Origin: Escherichia coli
GTDB lineage: Bacteria; Pseudomonadota; Gammaproteobacteria; Enterobacterales; Enterobacteriaceae
Assembly: GCF_003019035.1 (NCBI RefSeq)
Contig: NZ_CP027447.1
Reading direction: 5' to 3' (one strand)
DNA length: 64,000 nucleotides
Shown: positions 1,463 to 30,609 of the stretch, piece by piece
Numbering within the stretch: position 1 is the stretch's first letter
Layout of the letters: each line of letters starts with the position of its first letter
The notes under the pieces: generated by a model
Told to the model about the DNA's origin: nothing
The model's database searches: none
Seen by the model: the letters and a program-made list of their open reading frames with translations, nothing else
Made by a program: the position numbers and the translations under genes

Positions 1463-1942
1463 TTATTTAACTGCTGAATCTTCCTTGCGAGAAATATATC
1501 CATTATTACATTTCATGCCATTTTTAATATAGATTGCTCCTGGGAAAATTCCCGTATTATTACCGCAGGGGTGATAATTAGTATTGACATATCCTGTGAC
1601 AAAAGGAGCTATTAAAGGTGCTATTACGATAGCTATTAGTAAAAATATAAGAGTTAGCTGTATTGTTATGTCTGTGGCGAAATTGACTACCTTCGTTTTT
1701 TTGATTAAGAATGATTTTATTATCGTAAGTAAAATTACATGAATATTTAAAAAGGAAAACGACATGAAACCGAAGCACAGAATCAACATTCTCCAATCAT
1801 AAAATATTTCCGTGGAGCATTTTATTATTGAATATAGAGGTTTAACTCCGGTAAAAAACAAAGAAGCATTGAATGCAGGGAAAAATAATATGGCCATAAA
1901 AAACATCGAAAGAAACTCTTTTAATTTAACATGTAAACGCAT
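1463..1942 (-). CDS. Small polytopic inner-membrane protein (YkfM-like); candidate immunity protein for the upstream effector
   Basis: 159-aa ORF in very AT-rich DNA, several hydrophobic helices (FFMAILFFPAF, MLILCFGFMSFSFL, LTLIFLLIAIVIAPLIAPFV); starts about 10 bp after the upstream gene stop. Size and position match K-12 ykfM from memory (not verified). Confidence 0.55.
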   Translation of the reverse strand: MRLHVKLKEFLSMFFMAILFFPAFNASLFFTGVKPLYSIIKCSTEIFYDWRMLILCFGFMSFSFLNIHVILLTIIKSFLIKKTKVVNFATDITIQLTLIFLLIAIVIAPLIAPFVTGYVNTNYHPCGNNTGIFPGAIYIKNGMKCNNGYISRKEDSAVK

Positions 1943-1951
1943 GGTTAATCC

Positions 1952-2881
1952 TCATATCACGGGTGGAGTGTTAAGAACATACATAAATGGAGTCATGTTT
2001 TCCCTTTTCCATTTATCAAGTTCCTGTTGCCGTTTTAGTCCATCTCTAATTGCATATTTTAATTTTTCTGATAAATGGCATTGAGCATCGATTTCATTTA
2101 AAACAACTGTACACACTATCCCTGTCAGTAAAATTGCTCCTCCGACAAGAATTACTGGAAAGCCAAAGCTAACACAGGCAAAAGAAGCCAGGCTTCCAAT
2201 AGCGGTTGCAACACCACCGGCTATAACTGCTTTGGCCACATCCATTGAAAAATCGCCAAGAAAATTAACCAGATCTCGCTCTGAACTCATAATAAATTCT
2301 ATGGTTCTCCAGGCTACTGAAAACCAGATACAGAACTTAACTCCTTTTATTGATTCAGATAAAGCTCCTCGCCAGCCAATAGCGAGTTCCAGAACTTGAG
2401 GCGCTCGTGAAGAGAAAATATATTTACCGAGCTTTTCTAAAAGCCAGGGGCTGGATGTTGTGATTTTTATATATTTCTCTCCAAGTATTTCAAAGTAACT
2501 TGCTTTTGTATACTTTAAGGCATTAAGGTTAAATATAATTTTCCCATTGTCATCAAACTCAGTCATTAATTTACCCGCGTTAACTAACCAGGCGAGTGTA
2601 TCTTTTATACCTGAAGGATGTGTAGTGATAAAATGAATGTAATCAAATGATGTTATTGGGCTGAGTATTTTTTTTGCAACATCAAGTGTCAAGAGAATAA
2701 CATGATGAGTGTTCTGATGCCTTAACTCATCAATGAGTGGGACGTCGTTAAGATAAGGGTGCTGAGGTACTAGCTGGTTTATCGGCTGAGCCCCCCGAAG
2801 AATGTCACCCACATAATCAGCCCACTGTGCATTCTGTGTGTTGTTGTTATTCCTTAAACCAGCCATTTTATCTCTCCGCAA
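1952..2881 (-). CDS. Putative Hcp-associated T6SS cargo effector with C-terminal glycine-zipper transmembrane hairpin (YafU-like, full length)
   Basis: 309-aa ORF in AT-rich DNA immediately downstream of an Hcp paralogue (28-bp gap); C-terminal region AVIAGGVATAIGSLASF...FPVILVGGAILLTGIVCTVV has two glycine-zipper helices typical of membrane-disrupting toxins. Function inferred from context only. Confidence 0.5.
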   Translation of the reverse strand: MRRDKMAGLRNNNNTQNAQWADYVGDILRGAQPINQLVPQHPYLNDVPLIDELRHQNTHHVILLTLDVAKKILSPITSFDYIHFITTHPSGIKDTLAWLVNAGKLMTEFDDNGKIIFNLNALKYTKASYFEILGEKYIKITTSSPWLLEKLGKYIFSSRAPQVLELAIGWRGALSESIKGVKFCIWFSVAWRTIEFIMSSERDLVNFLGDFSMDVAKAVIAGGVATAIGSLASFACVSFGFPVILVGGAILLTGIVCTVVLNEIDAQCHLSEKLKYAIRDGLKRQQELDKWKRENMTPFMYVLNTPPVI

Positions 2882-2909
2882 TAGTAATTTATTATGTTAT
2901 TACAGTAAG

Positions 2910-3392
2910 TTACTGTACACGATCCTGCCATTTACTCATTGCATTCGTACCGGCTAACGTATGCTCCCAGGAAATATCTTCATAAATAAAGGCAATTCTC
3001 TCCTGTGGTTCCAGTTCTTTTTCCAGGACAGCATGCGGTGTGACAAAATCAATACTTGATATTCGGGCTTTTGACAGATTTATTTTATAATAAGGCTGGT
3101 AAATACCCGCTTTACTGGTTCGGTAGAGTATAAATTCACATAATGCCATTTTTTCATTGTCACTAAGTGCTTTTGCCAGCAATGGTGAGGATTTATCAAC
3201 CGGTTTGGTGATAATTAATTCATGATGATTGACATTTTGACTTCTTGAGATGGAATGCATTAACGCATAAACCATGATCTGATCTTTATGTTCTGGCTGC
3301 GCTTTGTTTCCGACAGAATCAAGCGTTGAGCAACCTGCTGAAATTAGCCCTTGTGTCTCTCCACTCAAAGATAAATAACTTATATTTGCCAT
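2910..3392 (-). CDS. Hcp-family protein (second, divergent Hcp paralogue)
   Basis: 160-aa ORF; N-terminal YLSLSGETQGLISAGCSTLDSVGN and C-terminal ISWEHTLAGT motifs parallel the main Hcp at 23478-23996 (YISITGQTQGNITAGAFTADSVGN ... IEWEHVKSGT). Confidence 0.7.
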   Translation of the reverse strand: MANISYLSLSGETQGLISAGCSTLDSVGNKAQPEHKDQIMVYALMHSISRSQNVNHHELIITKPVDKSSPLLAKALSDNEKMALCEFILYRTSKAGIYQPYYKINLSKARISSIDFVTPHAVLEKELEPQERIAFIYEDISWEHTLAGTNAMSKWQDRVQ

Positions 3393-3415
3393 GATAATCT
3401 CCTTTAATTAAATAA

Positions 3416-4768
3416 TTATTTTTCGGCCGTGGTACCGGTTGCCGCCTCTGGCATGACGTTATTCTTCAGCAGCAGCCAGCGGCTTAACACGCCTTCGAGT
3501 CGCTCATTAATTTGTTTTTCCAGCGCATCTGTATTCTGCTTCTGCGCACGGGCATCCTGGTACTGCGTCAACAGAGACTCAACGGGTGTTTCCTGCCCCA
3601 GTCCCCGCTCCGCCTGCCAGATGACATTTTTGATATAGGAAAGGGTTAGTCCCTCTTTCTCGCGCTGCATCACTAGATCTGCAAAAGCATGTAAGTCCTG
3701 GCGGGTCTGCAACCAGCCACGCAACTGCGGGCTACTCTGTGCGCGGGTTTTGAGTGCCTCATTCCATTGTGTCGAGGCCTGTTGCTGTTGCAGGCTTTCC
3801 GGCCAGCGACTGTCGGCAACACGCATCATCTGCATCCCGGTTTCCAGCGGCTGTACCGGGGAGGTATCAAGAAGTTGTTGCAGCCTGCGCTCATAGTTTT
3901 CGAGTTCAGGTGAGGCCATCCACACCGTTGCTGCGCCCTGAGCGGTGTCGTTAACCTGTAACAGTTGCTGCTGCACCGGATAGACCTGCCACCACCACAA
4001 TGCTGAGGCGACAGCCACTGAACAGGCGATCCCTGCGATAAACCCTCTTACCATACTGCCTTGCTTTATCACACTGGCCTGTGGGGGATTCTCTGTCAGA
4101 CTGCGCACTTCCACTTTCATCTCAGGCAGGCCAGGCAGGGGAGGCACTACCGCTTCTGGTGTGGAAGATGCCTGTGTTTCCGGGGCATAAATCAGCGTTC
4201 TGACCGTGGTCTGTGCGGCGTTCTCAGTGTTACTCTTCAGCTGGGGTTCAAGCCGTTTACGCGTGTTCTGCATAAAATAGAGCAGATTCTCCACGCGCGG
4301 AACGCGCTTCAGTTCCACCTGCTGGAGCTTATCGCAGATAAGCTGCAATGCCCGCTCTGTGCGGTAGATCAGTGGTAGGTCGGATTCCGCAAAGGAGATT
4401 TGCTGACGCAGAATATTGCCGGTTCGGGAGTTAAACCAGTCCAGCATTTCAGTACGCGCCGGGCCGCCCTGCGGCCAGAACTTATCCCAGTCGTGGCTTA
4501 CCATTGCCGCCAGCAGTTCCGCACCTTCGCAGAATCCCGCCAGTCCCTGTGTCCGTGTCCGGGCAAGCGTATAGTAGGTGGCGGTGTGTAAATCCACACC
4601 GTTGGCTTTAAAAATCGCCAGCGCCAGCGACTCCACCAGTTTCCAGTTCAGCTCAGGCTGTGACGGGTGGCTGGCTTTGTTTATTTCCTCGCGGATGGCG
4701 CTGAATTCCGGCAGCCCGCGCGGGTCACTGCCGGTAACGATAGTTTGTGTCAGTACGTTACTATTCAT
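3416..4768 (-). CDS. tagA: TssA-like ImpA_N-domain protein with transmembrane segment (TagA/VasL-like)
   Basis: Start set at MNSNVLTQ with strong RBS (gaggagg); N-terminal DPRGLPEFSAIREEINKA resembles the ImpA_N motif; mid-protein TM helix (GFIAGIACSVAVASALWWW). The ORF-track N-terminal extension overlaps the tssM stop and is rejected. Confidence 0.55.
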   Translation of the reverse strand: MNSNVLTQTIVTGSDPRGLPEFSAIREEINKASHPSQPELNWKLVESLALAIFKANGVDLHTATYYTLARTRTQGLAGFCEGAELLAAMVSHDWDKFWPQGGPARTEMLDWFNSRTGNILRQQISFAESDLPLIYRTERALQLICDKLQQVELKRVPRVENLLYFMQNTRKRLEPQLKSNTENAAQTTVRTLIYAPETQASSTPEAVVPPLPGLPEMKVEVRSLTENPPQASVIKQGSMVRGFIAGIACSVAVASALWWWQVYPVQQQLLQVNDTAQGAATVWMASPELENYERRLQQLLDTSPVQPLETGMQMMRVADSRWPESLQQQQASTQWNEALKTRAQSSPQLRGWLQTRQDLHAFADLVMQREKEGLTLSYIKNVIWQAERGLGQETPVESLLTQYQDARAQKQNTDALEKQINERLEGVLSRWLLLKNNVMPEAATGTTAEK

Positions 4769-4778
4769 CCCTGCCTCC

Positions 4779-7700
4779 TCAGTACAGTGTGTCTGACAGA
4801 CCAAACTGGCTGAACAACCCACCGCTGAACGGGTTATCTTCCGTGTCGGTATGCACACGGTAGGTCATCGCGCCACCGTCCACGCTAAAGCGCACGGTAA
4901 AGTTGCCATCCTGTACTCCGGTCAGTTGTCCGGCCCCGAACAGGCGGAACTGCGCCCACGGCCCGCTGAAGCTGATACTGCGCGGCGCGTTGCCGCTGGT
5001 GCCGATGAGCGTCAGCTTACTTTCGTTGCCTTCGCGCATGTTGTTAGGCCAGACCAGATGGGCGGTATAGTTACGGCCCTGGCTGTAATCGACTAACTGA
5101 CCGTCAAGGTTCAGTACACTGCGGCGTTTATTGCCTGAAAGCGATACCGTTTCCACGGCAAAGGATGTTCCCAGACCGTTCTGTTTGCTGAAGAAGATGT
5201 CACGGATTTTCTGCGCAGTTTCCAGTTGCGCAATAATATCTTCGCGAATAATGACGTTGTTATCGCCGTCTTCCAGGCTCAGATCATTGTCGATAAACAG
5301 TTTCAGGTTCTGCTGGTAGAAGGTATCCAGTATGCCATCCGGTTTAAAGAATCGTTCGAAGGCATCCAGTGAGGCATCCTGTGCAGAACGTGGATTAAAC
5401 GGATAGTTATTTGCCAGTTGCTCGTTAAACGGTTTCACCACGCTGTCGCGCCAGTCCACTTCCATATAGTGAACGGCTTCCACCATCACCACATGCCAGG
5501 CCTGGTCAGCCAGCCTGCCTACCCAGCGGTTGAGCGGAGCAGGCAGTGTTTTTGCCATCTGGCGGGTGGCGAATATTGGATCGCTGCTGTTCTGATCAAG
5601 CCTTAACTGCACGGCTTTCAGCGCCGATTTCCCTGGTACAGGCGCGTTCTGGATTGCCAGCAGGTAGCGGTGTAACTCGGTGAGCTGCTGGTATACGGCC
5701 TGCATCGTGCTTTCTTTGTCTTTCTGTACTGTCAGGGTACTGTTTTCCGGGGCGAATTCATGCCCGAGGCGGGTAAGTAACTGGTAATCCGGCTCTGCCA
5801 GGGCCTCATCCCGCTCTTTGGCAGAGAGTTTTTCAGAAAAGACTCCTGGCTGTGTGTTGTCACGCAGCACGGTCAGCGCCCGCTGCAAAGGCTGGTCGCC
5901 GCTGATAACCTGCTCCAGAGTGCCAGTCAGTTGTCCAATGGACTCAAAATTGCGGATATTGAGATTGTCCATCCCGGCCCGCCAGGTGGCGGTGTAGTCG
6001 CTGATATACTGCTCGGTCAACTGGCGCTGAATTTCCGCGCGGTCGGCGTCACTGTATTTCACGCTGCGGGTGAGGTTGAGTACCCAGGAATCCATCGCCG
6101 TCAGTTCAACCAGTTCATCGCGCTGTTTTACAAAATAGCTTTGCAGGCCGTAACGGGTAAGAAACTGTGGAACAACCAGTTTGTTATCATCGGCAGATGT
6201 AAACACCTGGTCAAAGGTTGGCCCTACCTGGTCACGCAGATTGAGGTCAGCAGGAAGAACGCCCAGCGCCCGCGTTTTCAGGCTCTGATAAACCCGCTGG
6301 TAGACAGGCAGTTTGCTCAGTTCTTTCTGTGCTGATACCACGGGCTTGTCATATGGCGTCCAGCGGCTGATGGCATCACCGTCGCCCGCCTGACGCTCTG
6401 CATGCCAGTCAGTATGAGCCAGCGCGTAGTCAAGATGGGACATCAGTTGTGTCTGGATATCGCGCTGTCCGTGGAACTTTTCGCTCCAGCGTTTTGCCAT
6501 ATACTGCTTCACCACCTCATTGTTACGTCCGCTTTTGTCCTCCAGCATTCGCATCACGCGCAGCACCGCGAGTTTTTCTTCACTCTCCGGCGGCGCGGCA
6601 TTCATCGCTTTGACCAGCCCGTTAAACAGCGAGGGCAGGTAACGCTGCTCCAGAAGTTGCAGATAGGTCTGTTCCACATATGGCCCGATACGTCTCCCCT
6701 GGTACAGGCCCATATCGGCCAGACGGCTGCGCTCGCCCCAGTCGCCATAGGCCAGTGTTGCATCGCGTACCGGGTTCAGCAGTGGCAGTTGCAGGTTGCC
6801 AAAGTCATCTTCCCCCTGCGGAGGCGGCACGTCCATAAAGGCTTTGGCCTGCTTAAGCACGGTGATGCCGGACTGATAGTTACCGTTGTAATAGTGATGC
6901 CAGCCGGTGATGAGCAGCAGTGCCGCCACGCCGCCTGTGGCAGAGAAAACCGTCAGGCGGCGACGGGAACGCATCAGCCAGGCGCTGCTCTCTGTTGCCA
7001 GATTAGGCTCTGCGAGTAATGCCTGCGGGAACAGGCTGCGGGTGAAATAAGGCGCGGTGTCCACCAGAGGCCAGGACGCCAGTGGGTTATTGCCCAGTCG
7101 GTACTGGCGGGCAGCAGACTGGGTGAATATATCATCCATCTGTCCACGCTGAAGCGAAGAGGTGAGATAGACACCACGCAGCATCACGTTCATATTTTCG
7201 CCGTCAAGCAGACCCTCAAGCAGTGACACCAGCGGCTCACGGCTTCCCTGCATCTGGCGGGAAAAACTGAATAAAGACGCGCGGGTGTGAGTCTGGGTGA
7301 CCATCAGATCCGGCAACGCCAGATTCATTCGATCCACCCATGTCTGCCAGAAAGCATTCAACTCTGTTCGCCAGTCATCATTTTCATGAGCACGGCGGGT
7401 GAACGTAACACCCAGAATCGCATCGCGATCCTGTCTGTTCAGTGACTGAAACAGGGCGGCAAAACCCTGCAATAAATCAAGCCGGGTCAGTACCACGTAA
7501 ACCGGTAACTGGCAATGAAGATGCTGGCGTATATCCTGTAAGCGGCTGCGCAGCGTCTGTAACAGATGCTCGCGGCGGCGTTTGTCTGCGGTCAGCAGAT
7601 CGGGTAAATCGAGTGTCAGAATAATCCCGTTCAGCGGCTGGCGCGCGCGCTTTTCCTTCAGCCAGCCGAGGGCATGTTCCCACAGACGGCGATGCAGGAT

Positions 7701-8303
7701 ATCCGCATCAGCGGGAGCGCAGAGTGTGCCGTCGATATCAAAGATCACCGCCTGTTTACCGACATGGGGCGTGAGGTACAGGCGTTGTTCTGCGCCGCGC
7801 GCGCCCTCCGGGGCATAAATAATGTCTGACGGAAACCCCTCGCGCAGCAGTGTCGTTTTGCCACTGCCCACAGGACCGATGACCATATACCACGGCAACT
7901 GCCACAGGAAACGGCGGTTGTCGAGATGGCGTTGCAGGCGCAGCAGCCAGCGGTCGAGGTAACGCTGCTGGGCGTTCAGTTCCACACTGAGCGCATCAAC
8001 GGCTTCCTCGCGCTGTTGCTTTTGCATTTTTTCAAGCTGTTGCAGGCGCTTCATTACCCGGACGGTAAGCCACACCAGGGCAATAATCCCCCACGCCGCC
8101 GTTGCCAGCCAGCGGTTCGCCAGTGGTTTGAGCCACTGCTCTTCATACAGCGTCCATGTCGGGCCTTTCCACCAGATCCATACCAGCAGGAAAATCCACG
8201 CCAGTATCAGCAGCCAGAATGCAGAAACTTTAAACCGGGGCATCGCCGGGCGCAGGGCTGATTTGAGTTCGCTGAATAGTCGGGGTGTTGGTAATCTGAA
8301 CAC
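4779..8303 (-). CDS. tssM: T6SS membrane complex protein TssM (IcmF)
   Basis: 1174-aa ORF; N-terminal TM helices, Walker A GPVGSGKTT, large periplasmic C-terminal domain. Confidence 0.9.
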   Translation of the reverse strand: MFRLPTPRLFSELKSALRPAMPRFKVSAFWLLILAWIFLLVWIWWKGPTWTLYEEQWLKPLANRWLATAAWGIIALVWLTVRVMKRLQQLEKMQKQQREEAVDALSVELNAQQRYLDRWLLRLQRHLDNRRFLWQLPWYMVIGPVGSGKTTLLREGFPSDIIYAPEGARGAEQRLYLTPHVGKQAVIFDIDGTLCAPADADILHRRLWEHALGWLKEKRARQPLNGIILTLDLPDLLTADKRRREHLLQTLRSRLQDIRQHLHCQLPVYVVLTRLDLLQGFAALFQSLNRQDRDAILGVTFTRRAHENDDWRTELNAFWQTWVDRMNLALPDLMVTQTHTRASLFSFSRQMQGSREPLVSLLEGLLDGENMNVMLRGVYLTSSLQRGQMDDIFTQSAARQYRLGNNPLASWPLVDTAPYFTRSLFPQALLAEPNLATESSAWLMRSRRRLTVFSATGGVAALLLITGWHHYYNGNYQSGITVLKQAKAFMDVPPPQGEDDFGNLQLPLLNPVRDATLAYGDWGERSRLADMGLYQGRRIGPYVEQTYLQLLEQRYLPSLFNGLVKAMNAAPPESEEKLAVLRVMRMLEDKSGRNNEVVKQYMAKRWSEKFHGQRDIQTQLMSHLDYALAHTDWHAERQAGDGDAISRWTPYDKPVVSAQKELSKLPVYQRVYQSLKTRALGVLPADLNLRDQVGPTFDQVFTSADDNKLVVPQFLTRYGLQSYFVKQRDELVELTAMDSWVLNLTRSVKYSDADRAEIQRQLTEQYISDYTATWRAGMDNLNIRNFESIGQLTGTLEQVISGDQPLQRALTVLRDNTQPGVFSEKLSAKERDEALAEPDYQLLTRLGHEFAPENSTLTVQKDKESTMQAVYQQLTELHRYLLAIQNAPVPGKSALKAVQLRLDQNSSDPIFATRQMAKTLPAPLNRWVGRLADQAWHVVMVEAVHYMEVDWRDSVVKPFNEQLANNYPFNPRSAQDASLDAFERFFKPDGILDTFYQQNLKLFIDNDLSLEDGDNNVIIREDIIAQLETAQKIRDIFFSKQNGLGTSFAVETVSLSGNKRRSVLNLDGQLVDYSQGRNYTAHLVWPNNMREGNESKLTLIGTSGNAPRSISFSGPWAQFRLFGAGQLTGVQDGNFTVRFSVDGGAMTYRVHTDTEDNPFSGGLFSQFGLSDTLY

Positions 8304-8321
8304 AAAAACTCCTGTTCTCTT

Positions 8322-9737
8322 TTATTGTTCTGCCGTGAATTTTTGTTCTAGCTGCTCAAGCAGGGACGGCTCCCAGTCTGCCACCATCATCTGCAATCCC
8401 ATCCTGAACAACATCCGGTACTGTTGCTGCGCAAGCTGTATCAGCCCCGCCTCCTCCGTCAACTGTGCGGCAAGGTACTGGCGGTGAAACTGATCGCGGG
8501 GTTCACCGGCGGGCAACGTATCCAGATACCGTAAGGCGGCTTCCAGCCCCTGTTCATCAAAACACAACCGCGCAGCCTGAATATCTTCATTACTCACCTG
8601 TATGACTGGCGCGGCCTGGTTACCTGGCTGAGTTGCAAGCCATTGCTTCGTTTTTTCAGAAACAAACGGTGTGTGGTCGTTAAACAGAAGATCGGCAAGA
8701 GCGGGCAGACGGCCAAGGAAGGAAACGACTTCATCGCGGATGGCATCGGCCACGGCGGTATAGCCAAGACGGTGCGCCGTCTGTGCAGAAATGCAGTGAC
8801 CGTCCAGCCAGTAGGGTGCCAGCAATACGCTTTTTTCCACCTGCTGCCACAGCGCCATATCGGCACTACCGAGCTGAGCATGGTAATCCGCCACCATATC
8901 GGCAGAGACCGCAGCCAGTGGGGTACGTCCATCGCTTTCCGCCTGGGGCGTACTGGTGATGGATTGCCACAGGGCATGGCGGCGGAGGCGATAGCCCAGC
9001 GGCGAGTCCGGCTGGCGTTCACATAAAATAGCCGCCACTTTTAACAGCGTGTCGCGCCAGGCTTTGTCGTCGTGACTGTCGATGGCGATCTGTAGAGCCG
9101 GAGCACTGGTTTGCGTCATGCTGCTTTCAGACGTGACGGTGGTTTGTGGTGAACTACCGGAGGCCGCCGGAGTGGGGACCGGAGCAGGAGCCGCACGATT
9201 AAACGTACGCTGGTACAGGGCAAAAAGATCATCGGTAGCCTGTGCCAGTTCCGGGACGTTATGTGACTGCCAGCACTGTGCCAGTTTCGCCAGTTCACCT
9301 AATAGCGCATCGCGCTGCGCTGTGGCGGCGTTCTGTGAAAAGCCTTCAATACCTGTTTCAAAGCGTTTAATGACCTGGCTGGCGAAGCGTTTTTTATGTG
9401 CCATATTCTGCGGCGCGGCCACCGCCCAGTAATGTTCCACATACAGTGCCAGCAGGCGCAAGGCCAGAAGCGGATCACCGGCATGTTGCAGGGTTCTCAG
9501 CAGATGCGCCAGCAGACGAAAATCCTTACTCTCCGAAGCCAGAATGACCAGCCCCCGGCGCTGGAGTTCCGGGATATCCAGTTGGCTGTGGGCCAGTGAA
9601 CCCAGTTTGACGATTTCGCCGTCGATATACTCCCAGTCCGGGTTGTCATCTTTTAGCGCCGATGCCTGTTTTTCTTCAGGCAGGTTTTCCAGCAGGTGCG
9701 ATATCCAGACATTCGGATCGCGTAAGTCCATTGCCAT
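8322..9737 (-). CDS. tssA: T6SS protein TssA (probable)
   Basis: About 470 aa from MAMDLRDP with RBS gggagaa; position between tssM and clpV in a T6SS operon; assigned by context and size, not a strong motif. Confidence 0.5.
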   Translation of the reverse strand: MAMDLRDPNVWISHLLENLPEEKQASALKDDNPDWEYIDGEIVKLGSLAHSQLDIPELQRRGLVILASESKDFRLLAHLLRTLQHAGDPLLALRLLALYVEHYWAVAAPQNMAHKKRFASQVIKRFETGIEGFSQNAATAQRDALLGELAKLAQCWQSHNVPELAQATDDLFALYQRTFNRAAPAPVPTPAASGSSPQTTVTSESSMTQTSAPALQIAIDSHDDKAWRDTLLKVAAILCERQPDSPLGYRLRRHALWQSITSTPQAESDGRTPLAAVSADMVADYHAQLGSADMALWQQVEKSVLLAPYWLDGHCISAQTAHRLGYTAVADAIRDEVVSFLGRLPALADLLFNDHTPFVSEKTKQWLATQPGNQAAPVIQVSNEDIQAARLCFDEQGLEAALRYLDTLPAGEPRDQFHRQYLAAQLTEEAGLIQLAQQQYRMLFRMGLQMMVADWEPSLLEQLEQKFTAEQ

Positions 9738-9741
9738 ATTT

Positions 9742-10485
9742 TTATTCTCCCGCCCAGTGGCAGGCGTCGCGTAGCGGCGCAATAACCCGTGCCAGCCCGT
9801 CAATGTTAAAGGTCAGCTTTCCGGCTGCGTTGTCTGCGCCGGTATCCACCGTCAGCGTTGTTGCGCCGAACAGTTGCTTAATTTCATCAATCCCGGACAG
9901 CCCCCGGCTGGACTCCAGCAGGGTGCCGTTCTCGCGCACAAACCAGTGGCTGCGCAATACCCGGCTGTCGGCATTCAGGGTGACGGCGATATCATGGACA
10001 TCCAGAGGGTGCACCAGCGCCACCTGCATCCGGGTGATATTGTCCACACAGCTGAACATCAGCACCGGGCGAGGCGGAACATGGCCGATAGCCGGGGTGG
10101 TTACCACCACCGTCGGGCGTTCCCCCGGCACCTGCGTCACCAGCAGCTCTGTGGTGTTGCCCTGGCGACGTTTTTCCTGCTCTATGGCACGGGTCCAGGC
10201 TTCGCCCACAAAACTGGCTTTGACCAGCGCCCCGTCAAACCCTGACGGGGACAGCGGTTCCAGCAGGCGGTCATAGCAGTCAAGCCGCTCCAGCGCCGCG
10301 AACTCCCGCCGACAGGACTGCATGGCCTGTAATGTGGCTGTCGCATCCGGCGGGGTCGCTGTGGCGACGGCTACCGCCACACCGGCCATTGACGATGTTT
10401 CTGCGGGCGCGGCACTGGCGGGTAAGCCCGCCATCAGGCCCGCAATAAACCATCCTGTCTGCCGGAAAACGCGCAACCTGCTCAT
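9742..10485 (-). CDS. Secreted T6SS-associated protein (VasI-like)
   Basis: 247-aa ORF with N-terminal signal peptide (FIAGLMAGLPASAAPA); embedded between clpV and tssA. Confidence 0.4.
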   Translation of the reverse strand: MSRLRVFRQTGWFIAGLMAGLPASAAPAETSSMAGVAVAVATATPPDATATLQAMQSCRREFAALERLDCYDRLLEPLSPSGFDGALVKASFVGEAWTRAIEQEKRRQGNTTELLVTQVPGERPTVVVTTPAIGHVPPRPVLMFSCVDNITRMQVALVHPLDVHDIAVTLNADSRVLRSHWFVRENGTLLESSRGLSGIDEIKQLFGATTLTVDTGADNAAGKLTFNIDGLARVIAPLRDACHWAGE

Positions 10486-13241
10486 AAAACCGTTTCATCT
10501 TCTGTGACGGACTCGTCGTCCAGAGCATCTTCCACATCTGCTGTGAACGTGCCGTCTGCCGCCGACAGCCGAATCCGGGCAATCGCCGTGTTGGCTGCCA
10601 TCTTCTGCAACAGCAGCAGGGAGAGCGGCGGCAGCATGTCGCCGTCAATGACCGATTCGAGCATCCTCGCGCCGTTTTCCGCTCGGGTGACGCGGCTCAT
10701 GATTTCGTCCGTCACTTCCGGCTCAATAATCACTTCCGCGCCAAAGCGACTGCGCAGCACGTTATCCAGACGGGTGAGTTTCCCGGCAATAATGGTGGCG
10801 AGCGTCTCTTTCGACAACGGCAGGTACGGCACCACTTCCATACGCGCCAGCAGGGCAGGTTTAAAGAAGTCCGCCAGCACCGGATAGAGGGCTTCCTGCA
10901 TGGTCTCCGGGTCATCGGCGTGTTCGACAATCACCTGGTAGCCAAGGTTGGAGGTGAGGAAGAAGACGATGTTTTTACAGTCAATCAGGCGACCTTCGCC
11001 GTCTGCCATCTCGCCCTTGTCAAACGCCTGGTAGAACAGGTTGAGGACATCCGGGTGCGCTTTTTCCACTTCATCGAGTAGCACCACCGAGTACGGTTTC
11101 TGGCGAATCGCTTCGGTCAGCACGCCGCCTTCGCCATAGCCAACGTAGCCCGGAGGCGAACCAATCAGGCGTGAAACGGTGTGTTTCTCCTGGAACTCGG
11201 ACATATTAATGGTGGTCAGGTACTGGCGACCGCCGTAGAGCAGTTCTGCCAGTTGCAGAACGGTTTCGGTTTTACCCACGCCGCTGGGGCCAGCCAGCAG
11301 GAACGCGCCGAGCGGGCGTCCCGGGCGGCGCAGGTCGGCGCGTGCAGTCAGCAGATGCTTATGCAGGCTGGCAATCGCCAGATCCTGGCCTTTGATGGTG
11401 TCGCCCAGCCATTTCGGCAGGTCGGTGATGACCGACATTTCATTCTGCGACAGGCGGTTAAGCGGAACGCCAGTCCATTCGGCAATCACCGCCGCAATCT
11501 GTTTTTTATCGACGTGCGGGGAGACCTGCAACCGGTCGTTATGCAGGGCGTCCAGTTCGGCAGTAAGCTGTGCCAGCCGTTGTACCGGGGAAACTGTTTC
11601 AGCGGTCTCTTCCGGCTGTTCGCTGCCAGCTTCATCAGCCGGTTCGGCATCGGTATTATCCTGTTCTGCCTCAGACGGCGTATCCTCCGCGGCATCTGCG
11701 TCCGGCAACGACGCCGCATCGTCTTCTGCCATACCCAGTAACTGCTGGCGCAGCGCGATAATTTCCTGTACCAGCGTCTGTTGCTGATGCCAGGCGGCTT
11801 CCAGTTCGTCCAGCGCCGTCAGCGTTTCATCATACTGCACCAGCACCTCCGTCATCCGTGAGGTGTCGGTACGCAGCCCGATGCGAAGCTCGCGCTCAAG
11901 CTGGCGAATTTCCGCCTCCTGCTGGTGGCTCAGGGTGGTCAGCGCCGAGATTTGCTTCGGTGGCGATGAAAGGTTAATGGCCACGCGGGCGCAGGCCGTA
12001 TCCAGCACATCAATGGCTTTGTCCGGCAACTGACGTCCGGAGAGATAACGCTCGCTTAATGTCGCAGCGGCCTGCAAGGCATCATCGTCAATCAGGACGC
12101 CGTGAGACTGTTCATAGACCGCCGACAGACCACGCAGAATAATGGTGGCTTCGGCGGCACTGGGTTCGCTGACCTTCACCAACTGGAAGCGGCGCGACAG
12201 GGCGGCATCTTTCTCGAAGTATTTTTTGTACTCGCTCCAGGTGGTGGCGGCGATGGTTTTCAGCTCGCCGCGCGCCAGTGCCGGTTTGAGCAGGTTGGAG
12301 ATATCCAGCCCGCCCTGCTGGTTGCCCGCCCCAATCAGGGTATGCGCTTCGTCGATAAACAGAATGACCGGCACCGGGGAGGATATGACCTCCGCCATCA
12401 GCCCCTTGAAGCGTTTTTCAAACTCACCTTTCACCGATGCCCCGGCCTGCAATGCACCCAGGTCAAGGGTCATAATGTCGGTGTTTTTCAGTTTGTCCGG
12501 CACCTGGCCTGCCACGATGCGCAGCGCCAGCCCTTCAATCAGCGCGCTTTTACCCACACCCGCTTCACCCACCACCACCGGATTGTTTTTACGACGGCGG
12601 CAGAGAATGTCGATCATCAGGTCGATTTCGTGGTCGCGGCACAGTACCGGATCAAGCCTGCCGTTACGGGCATCTTCGGTCATGTTTTTGGCGTAGCGGG
12701 CAAGCAGGGTGTCAGCAGCGTCCGTCAGTGTGCCTGCGCCTTTACCGTCTGCATCCGGCACGACTGATTCCGCCGACTCCTGTGTCCACTGCACAAAGTC
12801 CTGCTGCAGACGGTCACGGTTAATGCCGGTCAACAGCCGGGCGGCAGCAGGCGGTATATAACGCAGCGGCGAATGCAGCAGGGCCAGCAGCAACACGCCG
12901 CCGCGCAGTTCGCTGTGCTGCATCTCAGCCGACGCCAGCAGCCAGCCCTCTTTCAGCCACTCAACCAGCATCGGGGAAAACGCCGGGTAGCTGTCCGCAG
13001 AACGGGCGGTTGTGTAGTTCTCCACCGTCAGTGCCAGGCGCAACTCTTCCATGCCAATATCGCCCTGGCGGGTAATAACCCGCAGGTCACTGCGTGGCAT
13101 GGCGAGCATCTGAATAAGCACATGGCTGACGGTAATTTCCGCTGCCTGCTGGCTCATACATTCAGAGGCGGCCATCTCCAGCGCCTGGCGGGAGAACAGG
13201 TTAAGCCGTTTTACCAGCGTGGGAAGATCAATCTGGATCAT
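10482..13241 (-). CDS. clpV: T6SS AAA+ ATPase ClpV (TssH)
   Basis: Two AAA+ modules (Walker A GEAGVGKS and GPSGVGKT), ClpB-like middle region; start set at MIQIDLPTLVKRLN to avoid overlap with tssL. Confidence 0.9.
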   Translation of the reverse strand: MIQIDLPTLVKRLNLFSRQALEMAASECMSQQAAEITVSHVLIQMLAMPRSDLRVITRQGDIGMEELRLALTVENYTTARSADSYPAFSPMLVEWLKEGWLLASAEMQHSELRGGVLLLALLHSPLRYIPPAAARLLTGINRDRLQQDFVQWTQESAESVVPDADGKGAGTLTDAADTLLARYAKNMTEDARNGRLDPVLCRDHEIDLMIDILCRRRKNNPVVVGEAGVGKSALIEGLALRIVAGQVPDKLKNTDIMTLDLGALQAGASVKGEFEKRFKGLMAEVISSPVPVILFIDEAHTLIGAGNQQGGLDISNLLKPALARGELKTIAATTWSEYKKYFEKDAALSRRFQLVKVSEPSAAEATIILRGLSAVYEQSHGVLIDDDALQAAATLSERYLSGRQLPDKAIDVLDTACARVAINLSSPPKQISALTTLSHQQEAEIRQLERELRIGLRTDTSRMTEVLVQYDETLTALDELEAAWHQQQTLVQEIIALRQQLLGMAEDDAASLPDADAAEDTPSEAEQDNTDAEPADEAGSEQPEETAETVSPVQRLAQLTAELDALHNDRLQVSPHVDKKQIAAVIAEWTGVPLNRLSQNEMSVITDLPKWLGDTIKGQDLAIASLHKHLLTARADLRRPGRPLGAFLLAGPSGVGKTETVLQLAELLYGGRQYLTTINMSEFQEKHTVSRLIGSPPGYVGYGEGGVLTEAIRQKPYSVVLLDEVEKAHPDVLNLFYQAFDKGEMADGEGRLIDCKNIVFFLTSNLGYQVIVEHADDPETMQEALYPVLADFFKPALLARMEVVPYLPLSKETLATIIAGKLTRLDNVLRSRFGAEVIIEPEVTDEIMSRVTRAENGARMLESVIDGDMLPPLSLLLLQKMAANTAIARIRLSAADGTFTADVEDALDDESVTEDETVL

Positions 13242-13249
13242 AAACGTCC

Positions 13250-14011
13250 TTATCGAAGTAATTTGTTTAGCTGGTGCAGGATGTCCTGCGTCTGGCTGTC
13301 CAGCCGCAACAGATAGAACAGGTAAAACAACGCCAGCACGACAACGCCACCACAAAAAATATGTTTAATGGTCAGGTGACTGATGAGCTGATAACGCCCG
13401 CCCTGGTTTTTTTTGTCCTGGTGTAACAGCGGGAAAGGGGCATCGCCGCGTAGTTTATGCAGGACGTGGTACAGGCGGCGGTAGATCTGCTCAAATTCTC
13501 CCTGATCCTGTGCTGCCACTTTGTAGCGCCCGCGAAATCCCAGAGAAAAACAGAGCCAGAGAAATTCCAGCAGATCCTGGTAACGTTTGGGTTCACGGAT
13601 CAGGCGCTCCAGCAGGATGAAAACTTTCTCGCCACCCCAGGCTTCGTTGTGGAAATGGACCAGCAATGACTGCTTGATCCACTCGTTCTTGTTCGACCAG
13701 CCGTTACCGAGCGCCGCTTCATCAATAAACGTGCAGAGGATGTAGCGAAACGAGATAATCACGCCCGGTTCGTAGCCCTGCTCCTGAAGCAGTTGCTCCA
13801 CGGCCTGAACATCCGTCACCACCTGAGCAAAAAGATGCTCCGGCATCGTCTGGCTGTTCATGGTTGAAAGGCGCATCACCATACCGAGGAGCGGCGTGGC
13901 TGCGTCGATCATCGGATTCAGGCTGTTGCCACGAAGCGCGAGATGGTAGTCGCGCTGGCCTTTTTCGTCGTGTCCGATAAATGGTGGCAGAGACAGTGAC
14001 TCCTCATCCAT
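13250..14011 (-). CDS. tssL: T6SS membrane protein TssL (DotU-like), no periplasmic peptidoglycan-binding extension
   Basis: 253-aa ORF, cytoplasmic DotU-like domain and a single C-terminal TM helix (VVVLALFYLFYLL) ending shortly after. Confidence 0.8.
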   Translation of the reverse strand: MDEESLSLPPFIGHDEKGQRDYHLALRGNSLNPMIDAATPLLGMVMRLSTMNSQTMPEHLFAQVVTDVQAVEQLLQEQGYEPGVIISFRYILCTFIDEAALGNGWSNKNEWIKQSLLVHFHNEAWGGEKVFILLERLIREPKRYQDLLEFLWLCFSLGFRGRYKVAAQDQGEFEQIYRRLYHVLHKLRGDAPFPLLHQDKKNQGGRYQLISHLTIKHIFCGGVVVLALFYLFYLLRLDSQTQDILHQLNKLLR

Positions 14012-14015
14012 CGTC

Positions 14016-15347
14016 TTACCCTCTTATAGCCCACAGTTGCATATTCAGGTCCGGAAAACTGCCGGAGACATGCAGTGCAACGGCCCCGGCGGCAGCTATT
14101 TCAGCCCAGGCCTGGCCGCTTTTGTCGAGTTCGAAATAGCTGAACCCGGAATGGTAGGGAAGCTGGCGGGGAGCCACCATCAGTGCACGCAGAGGAATAC
14201 CGGGGATCTGCACACTGACCATATTGCGGATTTTTTCCGGCGAGGAAATTTTCGACTGCTGGATAAACTGGCGCTGGATCTGATCGACCGGCATGTTTGC
14301 CGCCACGGCCAGCACAAAGGTGGCAGATTGCAGCAGTTCTGTGTCATGGATATCGGCCTGCCAGATACCGTCACGCAGATGCAGCGGCAGATTGACGGCT
14401 CTTGGCGACAGTACGGTATGCAGCGCCCGTTTGACTTCCGGTAACAGCGTTTTAAATGTTTTGGTCAGGTCATGATGATCATACACATCAAGCGGGCAGG
14501 GCAGGCGCGACGGCTCGGTAAAGGTCATCAGTTCACCCAGCAACCCCGCAAGATCAAGGTAGAAATCTTCCGGGTGGAGCTGGGATCGACGAGCGCGATG
14601 GGTAAACCGGGTCTGGTTACGGTTAAGTAACTGCAACATCATAAATTCCGCCACATCCGCGATGCCGCTCTGCGCCGGAGAGCCAATGCGGTTTGCCAGA
14701 TCGCTTGCCCGTCCGCCAATGGCCCCCTGTACCTCTTTGAGATAAACACGCAGTTTCTTACTGACCTGAATATTCTGGCAGGAGGGGATAAAATCGTCAT
14801 CCAGCGTCAGGGAGCCGTCGGCATGGCGATCGCTGATACGGCAAAGCGGGAGCGTAATATAGGCGCTCATATCTTCTGCACCGCTCATAATGCGCGGCGT
14901 AAGTTGACCCAGCGTCAGTGTTCGCGCGTCACCTTCTTCTGAATGCAAATCCCGGACATCGGCATAATTCAGCCGGTAACGCCCGATTCGCCGCCCGTCG
15001 CTGATTTCATTTCTCACATCACTGGCGACCGGCAGAGCGAGGTAAATATTGCGGCTTCTTTCGTCCGGAAAATTTTGCGGGTGCAGCGGATCGGGCAGTG
15101 CGTCCTGGTCGGGGATAGAAAAGACGGTGCCGTCGGGCAGTGTGCCTGACGCGCTGTCAATCATGATCTTACCCTGCGCCAGCAGTTCATTGTTGAGGGT
15201 GAGTTCGGTAAATCCCCAGGATAAATCATTCATGGCCCGGAAACGCTGGTTATCCAGGTAGTCGTTGTAACGCTGCTGTTGCTGGAAATGGTGTGGGCGC
15301 ATCAGCATCCCTTCCTGCCACATCACCTTGTTGCGGGTGGTTGCCAT
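14016..15347 (-). CDS. tssK: T6SS baseplate protein TssK
   Basis: 443-aa ORF starting MATTRNKVMWQEGMLMRPHHFQQ, characteristic TssK N-terminus; operon position. Confidence 0.8.
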   Translation of the reverse strand: MATTRNKVMWQEGMLMRPHHFQQQQRYNDYLDNQRFRAMNDLSWGFTELTLNNELLAQGKIMIDSASGTLPDGTVFSIPDQDALPDPLHPQNFPDERSRNIYLALPVASDVRNEISDGRRIGRYRLNYADVRDLHSEEGDARTLTLGQLTPRIMSGAEDMSAYITLPLCRISDRHADGSLTLDDDFIPSCQNIQVSKKLRVYLKEVQGAIGGRASDLANRIGSPAQSGIADVAEFMMLQLLNRNQTRFTHRARRSQLHPEDFYLDLAGLLGELMTFTEPSRLPCPLDVYDHHDLTKTFKTLLPEVKRALHTVLSPRAVNLPLHLRDGIWQADIHDTELLQSATFVLAVAANMPVDQIQRQFIQQSKISSPEKIRNMVSVQIPGIPLRALMVAPRQLPYHSGFSYFELDKSGQAWAEIAAAGAVALHVSGSFPDLNMQLWAIRG

Positions 15348-15349
15348 AA

Positions 15350-15874
15350 TTATTCATCCTCTTTTTTCATTTCGATGCTGCTTTGACGTACATGCACCAG
15401 CAGGCGGTAATGGTGGCCGGTTCCTTCCACCGTCTCGATTTGTTTCCATTCAGTGGCCTGGTCATCGGAGAAATAGGCCACGACACCAATAAACTGCGTT
15501 TTCTCATCCAGCTTTACCGGCGGCAGGGTTTTGATGGTGTCCGGCAACAGGTTGAAATCCTGGTGGTCGATATAGTTTTTACCCAGCACATCCGGTAGCG
15601 GCGTACTGGCTATCTGGTCATAGTCGGCTGCCAGCAATTTTGAGTCGTCAGTCAGGTACACCAGTTGCACATCCACGGCGGCTGATTCACCCTCCGCATT
15701 GGTATTGGTGTCCGGTTCGGTCAGCAGGGTGACGGTTATTTCCGAAGGTTGCTCCTTCAGGCTCCCGACCTGGATATCCGGGTTTTTGATCACCTCACTG
15801 ATTTTTTTCGCCGTTTCGCAGCCGGTTAATATGACGCACATCAGCACGCAGGCCAGAAACGCCTTCCTGTTCAT
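15350..15874 (-). CDS. tssJ: T6SS outer-membrane lipoprotein TssJ
   Basis: 174-aa ORF with lipoprotein signal (CVILTGCETA). Confidence 0.8.
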   Translation of the reverse strand: MNRKAFLACVLMCVILTGCETAKKISEVIKNPDIQVGSLKEQPSEITVTLLTEPDTNTNAEGESAAVDVQLVYLTDDSKLLAADYDQIASTPLPDVLGKNYIDHQDFNLLPDTIKTLPPVKLDEKTQFIGVVAYFSDDQATEWKQIETVEGTGHHYRLLVHVRQSSIEMKKEDE

Positions 15875-17172: not shown

Positions 17173-17175
17173 AAT

Positions 17176-20072: not shown

Positions 20073-20075
20073 CTG

Positions 20076-20489
20076 TCAGTCCACCCGGTAATGCTGGCTG
20101 CCATTCGGTGCCATATCAAATTCAAGCACTTCATGCGTTTCGTTAAATGTCACCCAGGCTGTAATATGAAACGTCATATCCAGCGGGCTGGCGGCGGATG
20201 AAACCACAGCCTGCACTTCAGCGTGTGAGATCCGGGGTTCATAGCGTTCTATACATTGCGCGATGGCCCGACTCATTGATTGGCGGAAGTTTTCAGCCCC
20301 TTCCGGTTCATCAATGCCCAGTTCAGGCGCACCCCGGCAACTACCGGACCGGGTATTAAGAATGTTTCGCAGGTTCTGGCGAATGGACTGCCTGAGCGCA
20401 TGAATACTGCTTCCCTGCCGGTTTCTGGCCGGTGAGGCTTCCATACGCTCAAAAAGAGAACCTGTGGTTCTTTCCCGATCCGGTATCAT
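20076..20489 (-). CDS. tssE: T6SS baseplate protein TssE (gp25-like)
   Basis: 137-aa ORF between tssC and tssF; size and position typical of TssE. Confidence 0.8.
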   Translation of the reverse strand: MIPDRERTTGSLFERMEASPARNRQGSSIHALRQSIRQNLRNILNTRSGSCRGAPELGIDEPEGAENFRQSMSRAIAQCIERYEPRISHAEVQAVVSSAASPLDMTFHITAWVTFNETHEVLEFDMAPNGSQHYRVD

Positions 20490-20495
20490 GGCGTG

Positions 20496-21971: not shown

Positions 21972-22280
21972 ACTGAAAATCCTTCTGTTTTAGCTGTGTT
22001 TCTGAAACCGGCTTTTCGCCATCAGTGAAGTACGCGCTGCCAGTGCGACGCGCTCTGCTGAAACTCACAAAAATGGATAATCTCATCCAATAGATCACTG
22101 ATACGGCGATCCAGTGTTGTAATCAGCGCAGCCACACCATCCTGGTTGATTTCAACGGACGGGCTGAAACATACCTGGTAAACCACCTGCAGAATGTCTG
22201 CAACAGAGAGGTGGTATGTCCCGGAGATATTTTTGTGTGCCGTCATGCCTGGATAACCCTGTTTAATGAAATAGTGGTGG

Positions 22281-23996: not shown

Positions 23997-24007
23997 GTTA
24001 AGCCAAC

Positions 24008-30598: not shown

Positions 30599-30609
30599 CA
30601 GGAGGAAAT

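Follow-up and report, generated by a model that had tools for sequence, protein, structure and literature searches.

The last three genes of an aspV-linked T6SS cluster in Escherichia coli probably form an Hcp-effector-immunity cassette, in which an effector of the Tme family is paired with YkfM, a Tmi-like immunity protein, and a second Hcp would act as the carrier; we put the probability of this reading at roughly 0.78. The genes lie in a window of 64,000 nucleotides (the whole stretch of DNA that was analysed, from contig NZ_CP027447.1). Family membership, motifs, synteny and a deletion in K-12 were observed directly. The finding is not novel: the assignment to the Tme family dates from a 2020 study, in which the Tme/Tmi family and this exact E. 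coli pair were already catalogued (Fridman et al., 2020; PMC7046647). The features discussed below are as follows.

1463..1942, minus strand: YkfM, 159 aa, with three TM helices and a Cys-containing C-terminal tail, the same protein as WP_001236645.1 of K-12
1952..2866, minus strand: Tme-family T6SS effector, 304 aa, 34.0 kDa, the same protein as WP_000908052.1 (RefSeq CDS and published table)
1955..2308, minus strand: part of the effector, residues 187-304, that survives as the K-12 yafU pseudogene (blastn and translation, 100% protein identity)
2036..2503, minus strand: Tme toxin domain, residues 122-277 (limits and E value from Fridman et al., 2020, Suppl. Data 5)
2087..2089, minus strand: Asp260, flanking the TM helix (family alignment, published family definition)
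2090..2230, minus strand: hydrophobic helical hairpin, residues 213-259, presumed to insert into the membrane (Kyte-Doolittle, model)
2231..2242, minus strand: DxxK motif D209-V-A-K212, a Tme hallmark (family alignment)
2309..32153, no strand: segment of 29.8 kb missing from K-12, which aligns to 1-2308 and then to 32154-36166
2732..2839, minus strand: N-terminal module, residues ~10-45, a candidate delivery or loading signal (conservation)
2910..3392, minus strand: second Hcp, 160 aa, matching TIGR03344, at the end of the tssM-tagA operon arm; presumed to be a dedicated carrier of the effector

The trio sits between the T6SS gene tagA and yafT/aspV. It had originally been described as three tightly packed minus-strand genes in AT-rich DNA, and this is borne out by the list of open reading frames, all on the minus strand (1463-1942, 159 aa; 1952-2881, 309 aa from a TTG; 2910-3392, 160 aa), and by a GC content of 0.31-0.40 over positions 1400-3400, against 0.53-0.61 in the T6SS core; the AT-rich DNA of the trio may be subject to H-NS silencing. 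The tagA/VasL gene (3416-4858) lies upstream of the Hcp gene at a spacing of 23 bp, the effector gene is directly downstream of tssM-tagA-hcp, and the ORFs of the T6SS core are full length in the window, with vgrG present. The Hcp gene has a strong Shine-Dalgarno sequence (AAGGAG) and is separated from the effector gene by 43 bp (28 bp if the TTG start is used), whereas only 9 bp separate the effector gene from ykfM, the Shine-Dalgarno sequence of which overlaps the effector stop codon. With this layout and these Shine-Dalgarno sites, the trio is predicted to be translationally coupled. A promoter and terminator scan of positions 1300-3600 gave no signal above shuffled expectation. The three are real genes rather than chance ORFs, because they are conserved in Salmonella, Rahnella and other enterics.

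The coordinates first given for the middle gene correspond to a real ORF, but its proposed length of 309 aa does not stand: the gene in fact starts with the ATG at 2866, which gives 304 aa. This ATG lies 15 nt inside the TTG, is preceded by a GGAGAG Shine-Dalgarno sequence 7-12 nt upstream and is the start called by RefSeq (in a strain 100% identical to window positions 1-4900). Most homologues of the effector, the closest included, start at the same MAGLR/MASLR, and a longer N-terminal extension was found in one only.

In Supplementary Data 5 of the study defining the Tme family (Fridman et al., 2020; Nat Commun 11:1085), WP_000908052.1 is listed as a Tme protein with a Tme domain at residues 122-277 (E 3.7e-36) and a TM helix predicted by Phobius at residues 234-256; the same table records an Hcp upstream at 43 bp and the 159-aa, 3-TM protein WP_001236645.1 downstream at 9 bp (PMC7046647). 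The family is defined by a DxxK motif, a TM helix and a flanking Asp (PMC7046647), and among 133 aligned family members D209 is conserved in 123, K212 in 129 and D260 in 131. With a profile that we made from the E. coli clade, 702 representative proteins were matched at E<=1e-3, most of them along query positions ~120-280; PAAR-, LysM- and other N-terminally extended proteins were among them. The Tme domain is C-terminal, ending at residue 277 of 304 in the effector and followed by a median of 34 residues in 132 relatives. Identity to most members of the family is ~15-25%. Neither the 304-aa protein nor YkfM matched a family in Pfam, NCBIfam or PADLOC, the link to Tme being reached only via the genomic context of homologues; RefSeq labels the full-length effector a "hypothetical protein". 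Sequence-family and structure searches likewise gave no match to a housekeeping fold or family. The proposal of a membrane-disrupting toxin is thus supported at the level of sequence by membership of the Tme family, by the presence of its hallmarks and by the accession in the published table (PMC7046647).

The hydrophobic part of the domain has Kyte-Doolittle peaks at residues 214-232 (1.91) and 238-256 (2.71). Two glycine-zipper helices had been proposed here (216-229 and 241-255 in the 304-aa numbering); the first does show a small-xxx-small pattern (A216/A220/G224/S228), but the second is less regular. An AlphaFold model based on a 109-sequence alignment, with a pLDDT of 76.7 overall and ~80-95 over residues 120-300, places helices at 199-234 and 238-263, whereas a shallow 9-sequence alignment gave a pLDDT of 46. 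The predicted fold is a hydrophobic helical hairpin among long amphipathic helices, resembling that of VasX or colicin-type pore formers, but the effector matched none of the solved pore-forming toxins significantly, either in structure or in sequence.

YkfM was expected to be a polytopic membrane protein, and it does have three TM segments: hydrophobic stretches lie at residues ~10-28, 53-75 and 97-115 (Kyte-Doolittle), and Phobius helices at 12-32, 52-75 and 96-119 are given in Supplementary Data 5 (PMC7046647). Fridman et al. redefined the DUF1240 family as Tmi immunity proteins (Fridman et al., 2020; PMC7046647). YkfM gave no match to PF06836 (DUF1240) in Pfam, even at E<=10, and it is therefore called "DUF1240-like" here, in the sense of Fridman et al., rather than a member of the Pfam family. 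Its counterpart at the equivalent Salmonella position, which carries a precomputed PF06836 hit, shares 51% identity with it (E 1e-47), and there are weaker matches to two further DUF1240 proteins, so that YkfM would belong to the Tmi/DUF1240 family by transitive homology. Five residues (Y123, C126, Y138, K140 and C145) are invariant across eight syntenic Tmi proteins, and among these eight partners PF06836 matches four at E<=0.001 and six at E<=0.1. Its homology to DUF1240 proteins and its listing as the downstream partner (PMC7046647) both favour the immunity role first proposed for it, and by analogy with these proteins YkfM would be the cognate immunity protein of the effector.

By analogy with its studied relatives, the 304-aa protein would be toxic and would act in the periplasm. 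On firing of the T6SS, the effector would reach the periplasm of a Gram-negative neighbour, where its C-terminal domain (~122-277, with the DxxK motif and the hairpin) would insert into the inner membrane, with loss of the potential and permeabilisation of the cell. YkfM, as a three-TM inner-membrane protein in the producer and its kin, would specifically neutralise the cognate toxin; the conserved tail at its C-terminus (Y-x-x-C ... Y-x-K ... C) is probably on the periplasmic side. The 160-aa Hcp would be the probable carrier and the ~45-aa N-terminal module the probable loading part. In the E. coli/Salmonella clade, several well-conserved positions do not carry the consensus residue of the family, namely S138 (G in 119/133), L143 (R in 115/133), A155 (N in 103/133) and S195 (D in 106/133), and the activity of the effector may therefore be altered or weakened. 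A search of the literature found no experimental study of the E. coli effector/YkfM pair, and the effector was not detected in a study of an ETEC T6SS.

The 160-aa protein matches TIGR03344 over residues 1-157 (E 2.9e-60; 203 bits, the curated cutoff being 58.9), which identifies it as an Hcp (TssD). It is divergent, as the original prediction had it, sharing 29% identity with the 172-aa Hcp encoded beside vgrG at 23478-23996. Gene linkage suggests that it is probably the carrier of the effector. This step is the weakest link, because the effector, at 34 kDa, is large for an Hcp cargo and Vibrio Tme1 uses a RIX domain. Cargo carried inside Hcp rings is reportedly small in the classical cases, and the 34-kDa effector is larger.

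An appreciable but clearly lesser probability attaches to a reading in which the Tme/Tmi pair is genuine but the 160-aa Hcp is not its carrier, the N-terminal module loading instead on VgrG, PAAR or an adaptor and the Hcp being a tube subunit of the main operon that happens to lie by an insertion hotspot. In strains such as UTI89 and ECNB21-M121, an Hcp occupies the exact position with no cargo behind it, and so exists independently of the effector. A Tme gene is followed directly by a gene for a small protein at all ten loci compared (eight of these proteins have a precomputed DUF1240 hit, TM segments having been checked for YkfM only), whereas an Hcp is adjacent to the pair at seven of them and not found nearby at three. 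Other members of the family are fused to PAAR, VgrG, MIX or LysM domains, and Vibrio Tme1 is delivered via its N-terminal RIX domain: the first 60 aa of Tme1 are necessary and sufficient for secretion. At 34 kDa the effector is also large for a cargo of the Hcp lumen. The orphan Hcp-Tme-Tmi islands found outside T6SS clusters in Rahnella and at locus L010 are, however, hard to explain unless Hcp and effector cooperate. Furthermore, Hcp allele and cassette switch together, strains that carry other cargo or none having an Hcp with 54-56% identity to this one, and Hcp identity tracks that of the N-terminal module rather than that of the toxin domain: in the contrast with Salmonella-type loci, Hcp is 98%, the module 79% and the toxin domain 30% identical.

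The N-terminal module has the consensus W-x-D-Y-x-G-x-x-L-R-G-x-x-P-I-N-Q-L-V-P-Q-H-P-Y. Relatives in which the toxin domain is only 30-36% identical retain 82-85% identity in the module. Across seven Hcp-Tme-Tmi loci (21 locus pairs), Hcp identity and module identity co-vary (Spearman 0.72, confounded by phylogeny), and Tmi identity does not track toxin-domain identity in the same 21 pairs (Spearman -0.19); the locus pairs are phylogenetically non-independent, and for this reason only the 98/79/30% contrast is used as evidence. A search of 5.8 billion proteins with the N-terminal 75 aa yielded, among 24 candidates, nothing but truncated E. coli fragments and so gives no evidence either way on the module in toxins other than Tme. 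RIX is an arginine-rich N-terminal domain of ~55 aa, reported only in Vibrionaceae and Moritellaceae, and the module of the E. coli effector is not visibly arginine-rich. Gene linkage and analogy suggest that this ~45-aa module probably specifies the loading of the effector. A bolder and more doubtful proposal is that it constitutes an undescribed, Hcp-allele-matched loading signal (compare MIX, FIX and RIX), by which a single dedicated Hcp could carry swappable Tme toxin domains of ~34 kDa; as a corollary, the intact orphan ykfM of ~420 complete E. coli genomes, that of K-12 among them, might truly protect against gut E. coli armed with Tme.

The site at which the cassette lies has at least four allelic states. 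Other cassettes found there are the O157 type, with an Hcp, a 73-aa protein, a 198-aa protein and a DUF1311 protein, and the UTI89 type, with Hcp alone. The O157-type cargo was considered as a relative of the effector and rejected (E 0.21), and its 198-aa protein belongs to no Pfam family. Tandem DUF1240 arrays were seen among the loci, and at one Salmonella locus a decayed second Tme lies beside an intact Tmi that shares 93% identity with the Tmi accompanying the intact allele. Close to half of the complete E. coli genomes carry a T6SS of the type found in the window, and the N-terminal half of the effector occurs in 2574 of 5426, with a patchy distribution; an intact orphan ykfM is present in ~420. 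Cassette swapping, tandem DUF1240 arrays and decayed toxins beside intact immunity genes are signatures of polymorphic toxins, not of housekeeping genes.

K-12 retains a remnant of the module. It had been proposed that the small membrane gene corresponded to K-12 ykfM and the effector to a full-length version of yafU, K-12 thus keeping an orphan immunity gene and a decayed effector, and direct alignment confirms both points. K-12 matches window positions 1-2308 at 99.3%; its YkfM (b4586) has the same accession and position as the protein of the window, and its 357-bp yafU pseudogene (b0218), in the same position by yafT/aspV, is 100% identical to effector residues 187-304 and lacks residues 1-186, and with them the N-terminal module as well as the initial third of the Tme domain. 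The missing segment contains the N-terminal part of the effector, the Hcp, the whole T6SS, vgrG, Rhs and part of ISEc1, and its right end falls inside an ISAs1-family element (transposase ORF at 31298-32434). K-12 lost the toxin N-terminus, the Hcp and the entire T6SS in a single IS-associated deletion of 29.8 kb that left ykfM intact. K-12 ykfM is an orphan, because effector residues 1-186, the Hcp and the T6SS are all absent. Judging from these alignments, immunity outlived the toxin twice independently, in K-12 and at one Salmonella locus, which lends indirect support to a role of such proteins in protection against the cognate Tme.

The K-12 literature (2010-2024) describes ykfM as an uncharacterised transmembrane or "lethality reduction" gene; ykfM::Tn5 mutants have phenotypes with nalidixic acid, mitomycin C and SDS, and mutations in ykfM recur under peptide-PNA selection. 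No paper linking ykfM or yafU to T6SS was found in the open-access literature. The ykfM::Tn5 phenotypes are unexplained by an immunity role, and such stress-survival effects in a strain with no T6SS, together with the peptide-PNA mutations, would fit a different reading, in which both the 304-aa and the 159-aa protein reside in the inner membrane, with a structural, accessory or stress role, and no secreted toxin or immunity function is involved. The name "Inner membrane protein yafU" given to close homologues in UniProt points in the same direction, as does the lack of some family-consensus residues in the E. coli clade. The name was, however, transferred automatically from the annotation of the K-12 fragment, the hallmarks of Tme are present, the validated relatives are secreted toxins, and the locus has the signatures of a polymorphic toxin and a patchy spread; resident proteins of this kind are improbable. 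Still less credible is a cassette aimed elsewhere than at rival bacteria, as an anti-eukaryotic effector or an anti-phage/abortive-infection membrane module: membrane-permeabilising proteins can affect eukaryotic membranes, a related APEC/NMEC T6SS encoded at the same locus has been implicated in interaction with the host and small membrane toxin/antitoxin pairs are found in defence islands, but none of the three proteins matches a PADLOC defence family, a tightly linked, specific membrane immunity gene favours bacteria as the target, the site at which Tme1 and Tme2 kill bacteria is the Gram-negative periplasm, and the module is embedded in a T6SS operon.

As a discovery, the proposed antibacterial Hcp-Tme-YkfM cassette is of little weight; its value lies in annotation and experiment. 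It provides a concrete, testable function for two y-genes of K-12, ykfM and yafU, as leftovers of the module. K-12 laboratory prey carry an intact predicted immunity gene to one effector of this T6SS, which could bias assays of E. coli against E. coli when MG1655 serves as prey. For three topics the locus offers a clean natural model: cassette swapping at one site, immunity outliving its toxin and the recognition of cargo by Hcp.

Among known systems, Tse4/Tsi4 of Pseudomonas aeruginosa and Ssp4 and Ssp6 of Serratia marcescens resemble the pair described here in being antibacterial T6SS cargo that acts on the inner membrane from the periplasm, with small membrane proteins for immunity. Tse4 has glycine-zipper-like helices, and Ssp4 has been described as Hcp-dependent. 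No sequence or fold relationship of the effector to Tse4, Ssp4 or Ssp6 was detected, and its placement in the Ssp4 family was rejected, the Ssp4 paper treating Tme as a separate class. Tse4, Ssp4 and Ssp6 depolarise cells without gross permeabilisation, whereas Tme1 and Tme2 also admit propidium iodide, and the effector of the window is larger (34 kDa). VasX of Vibrio cholerae is a protein of about 1,085 aa that depends on VgrG and an adaptor for delivery. Tme1 and Tme2 depolarise and permeabilise cells as much as periplasmic VasX does (PMC7046647). These two Vibrio parahaemolyticus effectors are T6SS-secreted and toxic only in the periplasm, where they cause depolarisation and propidium iodide uptake, and each is rescued only by its cognate downstream Tmi (PMC7046647). 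The E. coli effector differs from them in lacking several consensus residues and in having an N-terminal module unlike the RIX domain of Tme1; its gene lies within a T6SS cluster, right after an Hcp, whereas Tme1 is an orphan. Like Tme1/Tmi1 and Tme2/Tmi2, the E. coli pair combines a C-terminal Tme domain with a downstream multi-TM, DUF1240-like gene in a genome that encodes a T6SS.

The three minus-strand ORFs of the original prediction are recovered at the same coordinates by an ORF listing, and have the following setting:

137-213: aspV (tRNA-Asp), with dnaQ at the start of the window
541-1326, plus strand: yafT lipoprotein gene (261 aa), next after aspV
1463-1942, minus strand: ykfM (159 aa)
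1952-2881, minus strand: middle (effector) ORF, 309 aa if read from TTG
2910-3392, minus strand: hcp (160 aa)
3416-4858, minus strand: tagA/VasL, same strand as the cassette
4779-8303, minus strand: tssM, same strand as the cassette
31298-32434, plus strand: ISEc1/ISAs1-family transposase gene, between the Rhs region and yafV; the K-12 deletion ends within it on the right, at 32154

The cassette ORFs lie downstream of tssM and tagA/VasL at successive distances of 23, 43 and 9 bp, and all three have a Shine-Dalgarno sequence in front of them. The AT-richness claimed for them is borne out by a GC content of 0.31–0.40 over 1400-3400, versus 0.53–0.61 in the T6SS core, whose ORFs within the window are full length. 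The middle ORF can be read from a TTG as a 309-aa protein, as first proposed, but translation really begins at the ATG at position 2866 and yields 304 aa (34.0 kDa): this codon has GGAGAG upstream, is the RefSeq start, and is where most homologues start, the closest among them, with a single homologue extending further at the N-terminus. The 160-aa protein is indeed a divergent second Hcp (TIGR03344, E 2.9e-60), with only 29% identity to the 172-aa Hcp beside vgrG (23478-23996). In both E. coli and Salmonella the cassette is bordered by yafT (relatives assigned to Pfam YafT), and the yafT DNA diverges by cassette type (86–92% identity in UTI89-type and similar strains, 99% elsewhere).

The effector/YkfM pair belongs to the Tme/Tmi family of type VI membrane-disrupting effectors and their immunity proteins, in which it has already been catalogued (Fridman et al., 2020, Nat Commun 11:1085; PMC7046647). 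Neither the 304-aa effector nor the 159-aa YkfM has a match in Pfam, NCBIfam or PADLOC and, with these direct scans empty, the genomic contexts of homologues were decisive for the family assignment. Close homologues of the effector are few, being found in E. coli, Salmonella (62%) and Rahnella (39%); the Salmonella orthologue occupies the same tssM-tagA-hcp-X-Y-yafT-dnaQ arrangement, the Rahnella bruchi homologue lies in an isolated island beside an orphan hcp, and in both loci the gene directly 3' of the effector homologue carries Pfam DUF1240. The exact accessions of both window proteins, given to the window genes via a strain 100% identical over 1-4900, are present in Supplementary Data 5 of the study defining the family, in which WP_000908052.1 is entered as Tme (domain at 122-277, E 3.7e-36), 43 bp downstream of a TIGR03344 Hcp, and the 3-TM proteins of 159 aa encoded 9 bp downstream of the E. 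coli Tmes include WP_001236645.1 (YkfM) (Fridman et al., 2020). A profile built on E. coli-clade sequences matched 702 representative proteins at E<=1e-3, mostly aligned to query positions ~120–280 and some with long N-terminal extensions; relatives in structure databases bear PAAR- or LysM-domain annotations. The effector has a DxxK motif (D209 in 123/133 and K212 in 129/133 aligned Tme domains), a flanking D260 kept in 131 of the 133, and hydrophobic helices at 214–232 and 238–256, all published Tme hallmarks that are conserved across the family; the E. coli/Salmonella clade departs at a few otherwise conserved positions of this 133-domain alignment (S138, L143, A155, S195). An AlphaFold model (109-sequence alignment, pLDDT 76.7) places a small beta element ahead of four long helices around a hydrophobic hairpin, and a structure search with it returned no solved structure specifically alike, and hence no confident match to a housekeeping fold.

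YkfM does not match PF06836 directly, and is classed as DUF1240-like because a C-terminal motif (Y123, C126, Y138, K140, C145) is invariant across YkfM and seven syntenic Tmi proteins. Four of the syntenic Tmi proteins match DUF1240 at E<=0.001, and six at E<=0.1. YkfM is also 51% identical (E 1e-47) to the Salmonella DUF1240 protein downstream of the effector orthologue. DUF1240 and DUF1240-like proteins have been redefined as Tmi, the immunity family of Tme (Fridman et al., 2020).

The cassette site behaves like a polymorphic-toxin locus. A small-protein gene directly follows the Tme gene in all ten loci examined (precomputed DUF1240 match in eight), sometimes in arrays of two or three, and Hcp adjoins the Tme gene in seven. 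In the O157-like strain E. coli 2017C-4109 (L003, 3320-5168), the same site between tagA and yafT holds an Hcp 54% identical to that of the window, a 73-aa ORF, a 198-aa protein without a family match and a DUF1311 protein; the cargo is unrelated to the effector, and the cassette probably represents another Hcp-linked effector-immunity set, as yet uncharacterised. In UTI89 (L015, 7667-8146) and ECNB21-M121 (L014, 3948-4427; Hcp 56% identical to the window Hcp), tagA is followed by Hcp and Hcp immediately by yafT, cargo and immunity genes being absent, an arrangement seen in B2/UTI89-type strains and some others. This is the position of the APEC 'Hcp2A'. A 275-aa metagenome protein (P0103) carries a Tme N-terminal module (residues 2–80) that runs in frame into a Tmi-like C-terminus (…YYDWRTVFTVL…), which looks like a deletion joining a decayed effector to its immunity gene.

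The suggestion that K-12 retains an orphan immunity gene and a decayed effector from this island is confirmed by alignment. K-12 matches the window collinearly over 1-2308 (99.3%) and resumes at 32154 (97.1%), corresponding to a single 29.8-kb deletion, with its right end inside the ISAs1-family element, that removed effector residues 1–186, Hcp, the whole T6SS, vgrG and Rhs. K-12 ykfM is intact and encodes a protein identical to YkfM of the window, and yafU is effector residues 187–304 (100% identity). K-12 'yafF' is a leftover piece of the transposase gene. At least 80% of ykfM is present in 2,997 of 5,426 complete E. coli genomes, and at least 80% of the effector part missing from K-12 in 2,574, which suggests an orphan-immunity state in ~420, a difference of counts that runs too high because the genome set includes many laboratory derivatives of K-12 and B. 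The same pattern of an orphan immunity gene beside a dead toxin has arisen independently in Salmonella enterica (L006, DALPDZ010000034.1, 9586-11010), where a decayed second Tme lies downstream of an intact Tme/Tmi pair; its 169-aa and 43-aa fragments are 82% and 88% identical to residues 1–173 and 285–327 of an intact Tme allele (P0019), and the Tmi beside it is intact and 93% identical to the partner of that allele. No statement that K-12 ykfM and yafU are left over from a T6SS effector-immunity module was found in the searchable literature; ykfM is still described as uncharacterised in K-12 papers, and the effector is named 'hypothetical' in RefSeq and 'Inner membrane protein yafU' in UniProt.

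The Rhs toxin of the window looks frameshifted, because within 26381-30598 its core ORF (1202 aa) stops ~70 bp short of the canonical core-end motif, and the motif is found in a further ORF (30059-30598); RefSeq also flags the Rhs core as frameshifted in SCU-301, a strain 99.9% identical. If this frameshift is real, the window T6SS may rely chiefly on Tme as its functional effector. Window 1-40445 is 99.886% identical to SCU-301 (NZ_CP051751.1), with 19 gapped positions in 18 gap openings, and tssH and vgrG, frameshifted in the SCU-301 RefSeq annotation, are full-length ORFs in the window (10482-13355 and 24206-26314), so the SCU-301 frameshifts in these two genes may be assembly errors.

Delivery is the least certain step of the proposed mechanism. 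Effector residues ~10–45 are 82–85% identical in relatives with a toxin domain only 30–36% identical, and two Salmonella-type loci share 98% identity in Hcp, 79% in this N-module, 30% in the toxin domain and 35% in Tmi. The N-terminal 60 aa of Vibrio Tme1 have been described as both necessary and sufficient for secretion, whereas toxicity does not need them. On this precedent and the conservation pattern, it is proposed that the N-module would specify loading onto the co-encoded Hcp. There are several arguments against such loading: a 34-kDa effector is large for Hcp-lumen cargo, Hcp is not nearby in three examined Tme loci, the cross-locus correlation between Hcp and N-module is confounded by phylogeny, and Tmi identity does not track toxin identity across the compared loci. 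No description of an Hcp-linked N-module was found in the searchable literature; the N-module and the origin of K-12 ykfM and yafU are of use for annotation and offer a modest lead, short of a discovery.

No experiment on the E. coli effector/YkfM pair was found in the searchable literature. The Vibrio parahaemolyticus effectors Tme1 and Tme2 are secreted by the T6SS, are toxic in the periplasm but not in the cytoplasm, cause loss of membrane potential and entry of propidium iodide, and are neutralised only by their cognate Tmi (Fridman et al., 2020). By homology with these two proteins, the window effector should be toxic and YkfM protective; like Tme1 and Tme2, the effector would disrupt the inner membrane of a rival from its periplasmic side, and YkfM would protect the producer cell against it.
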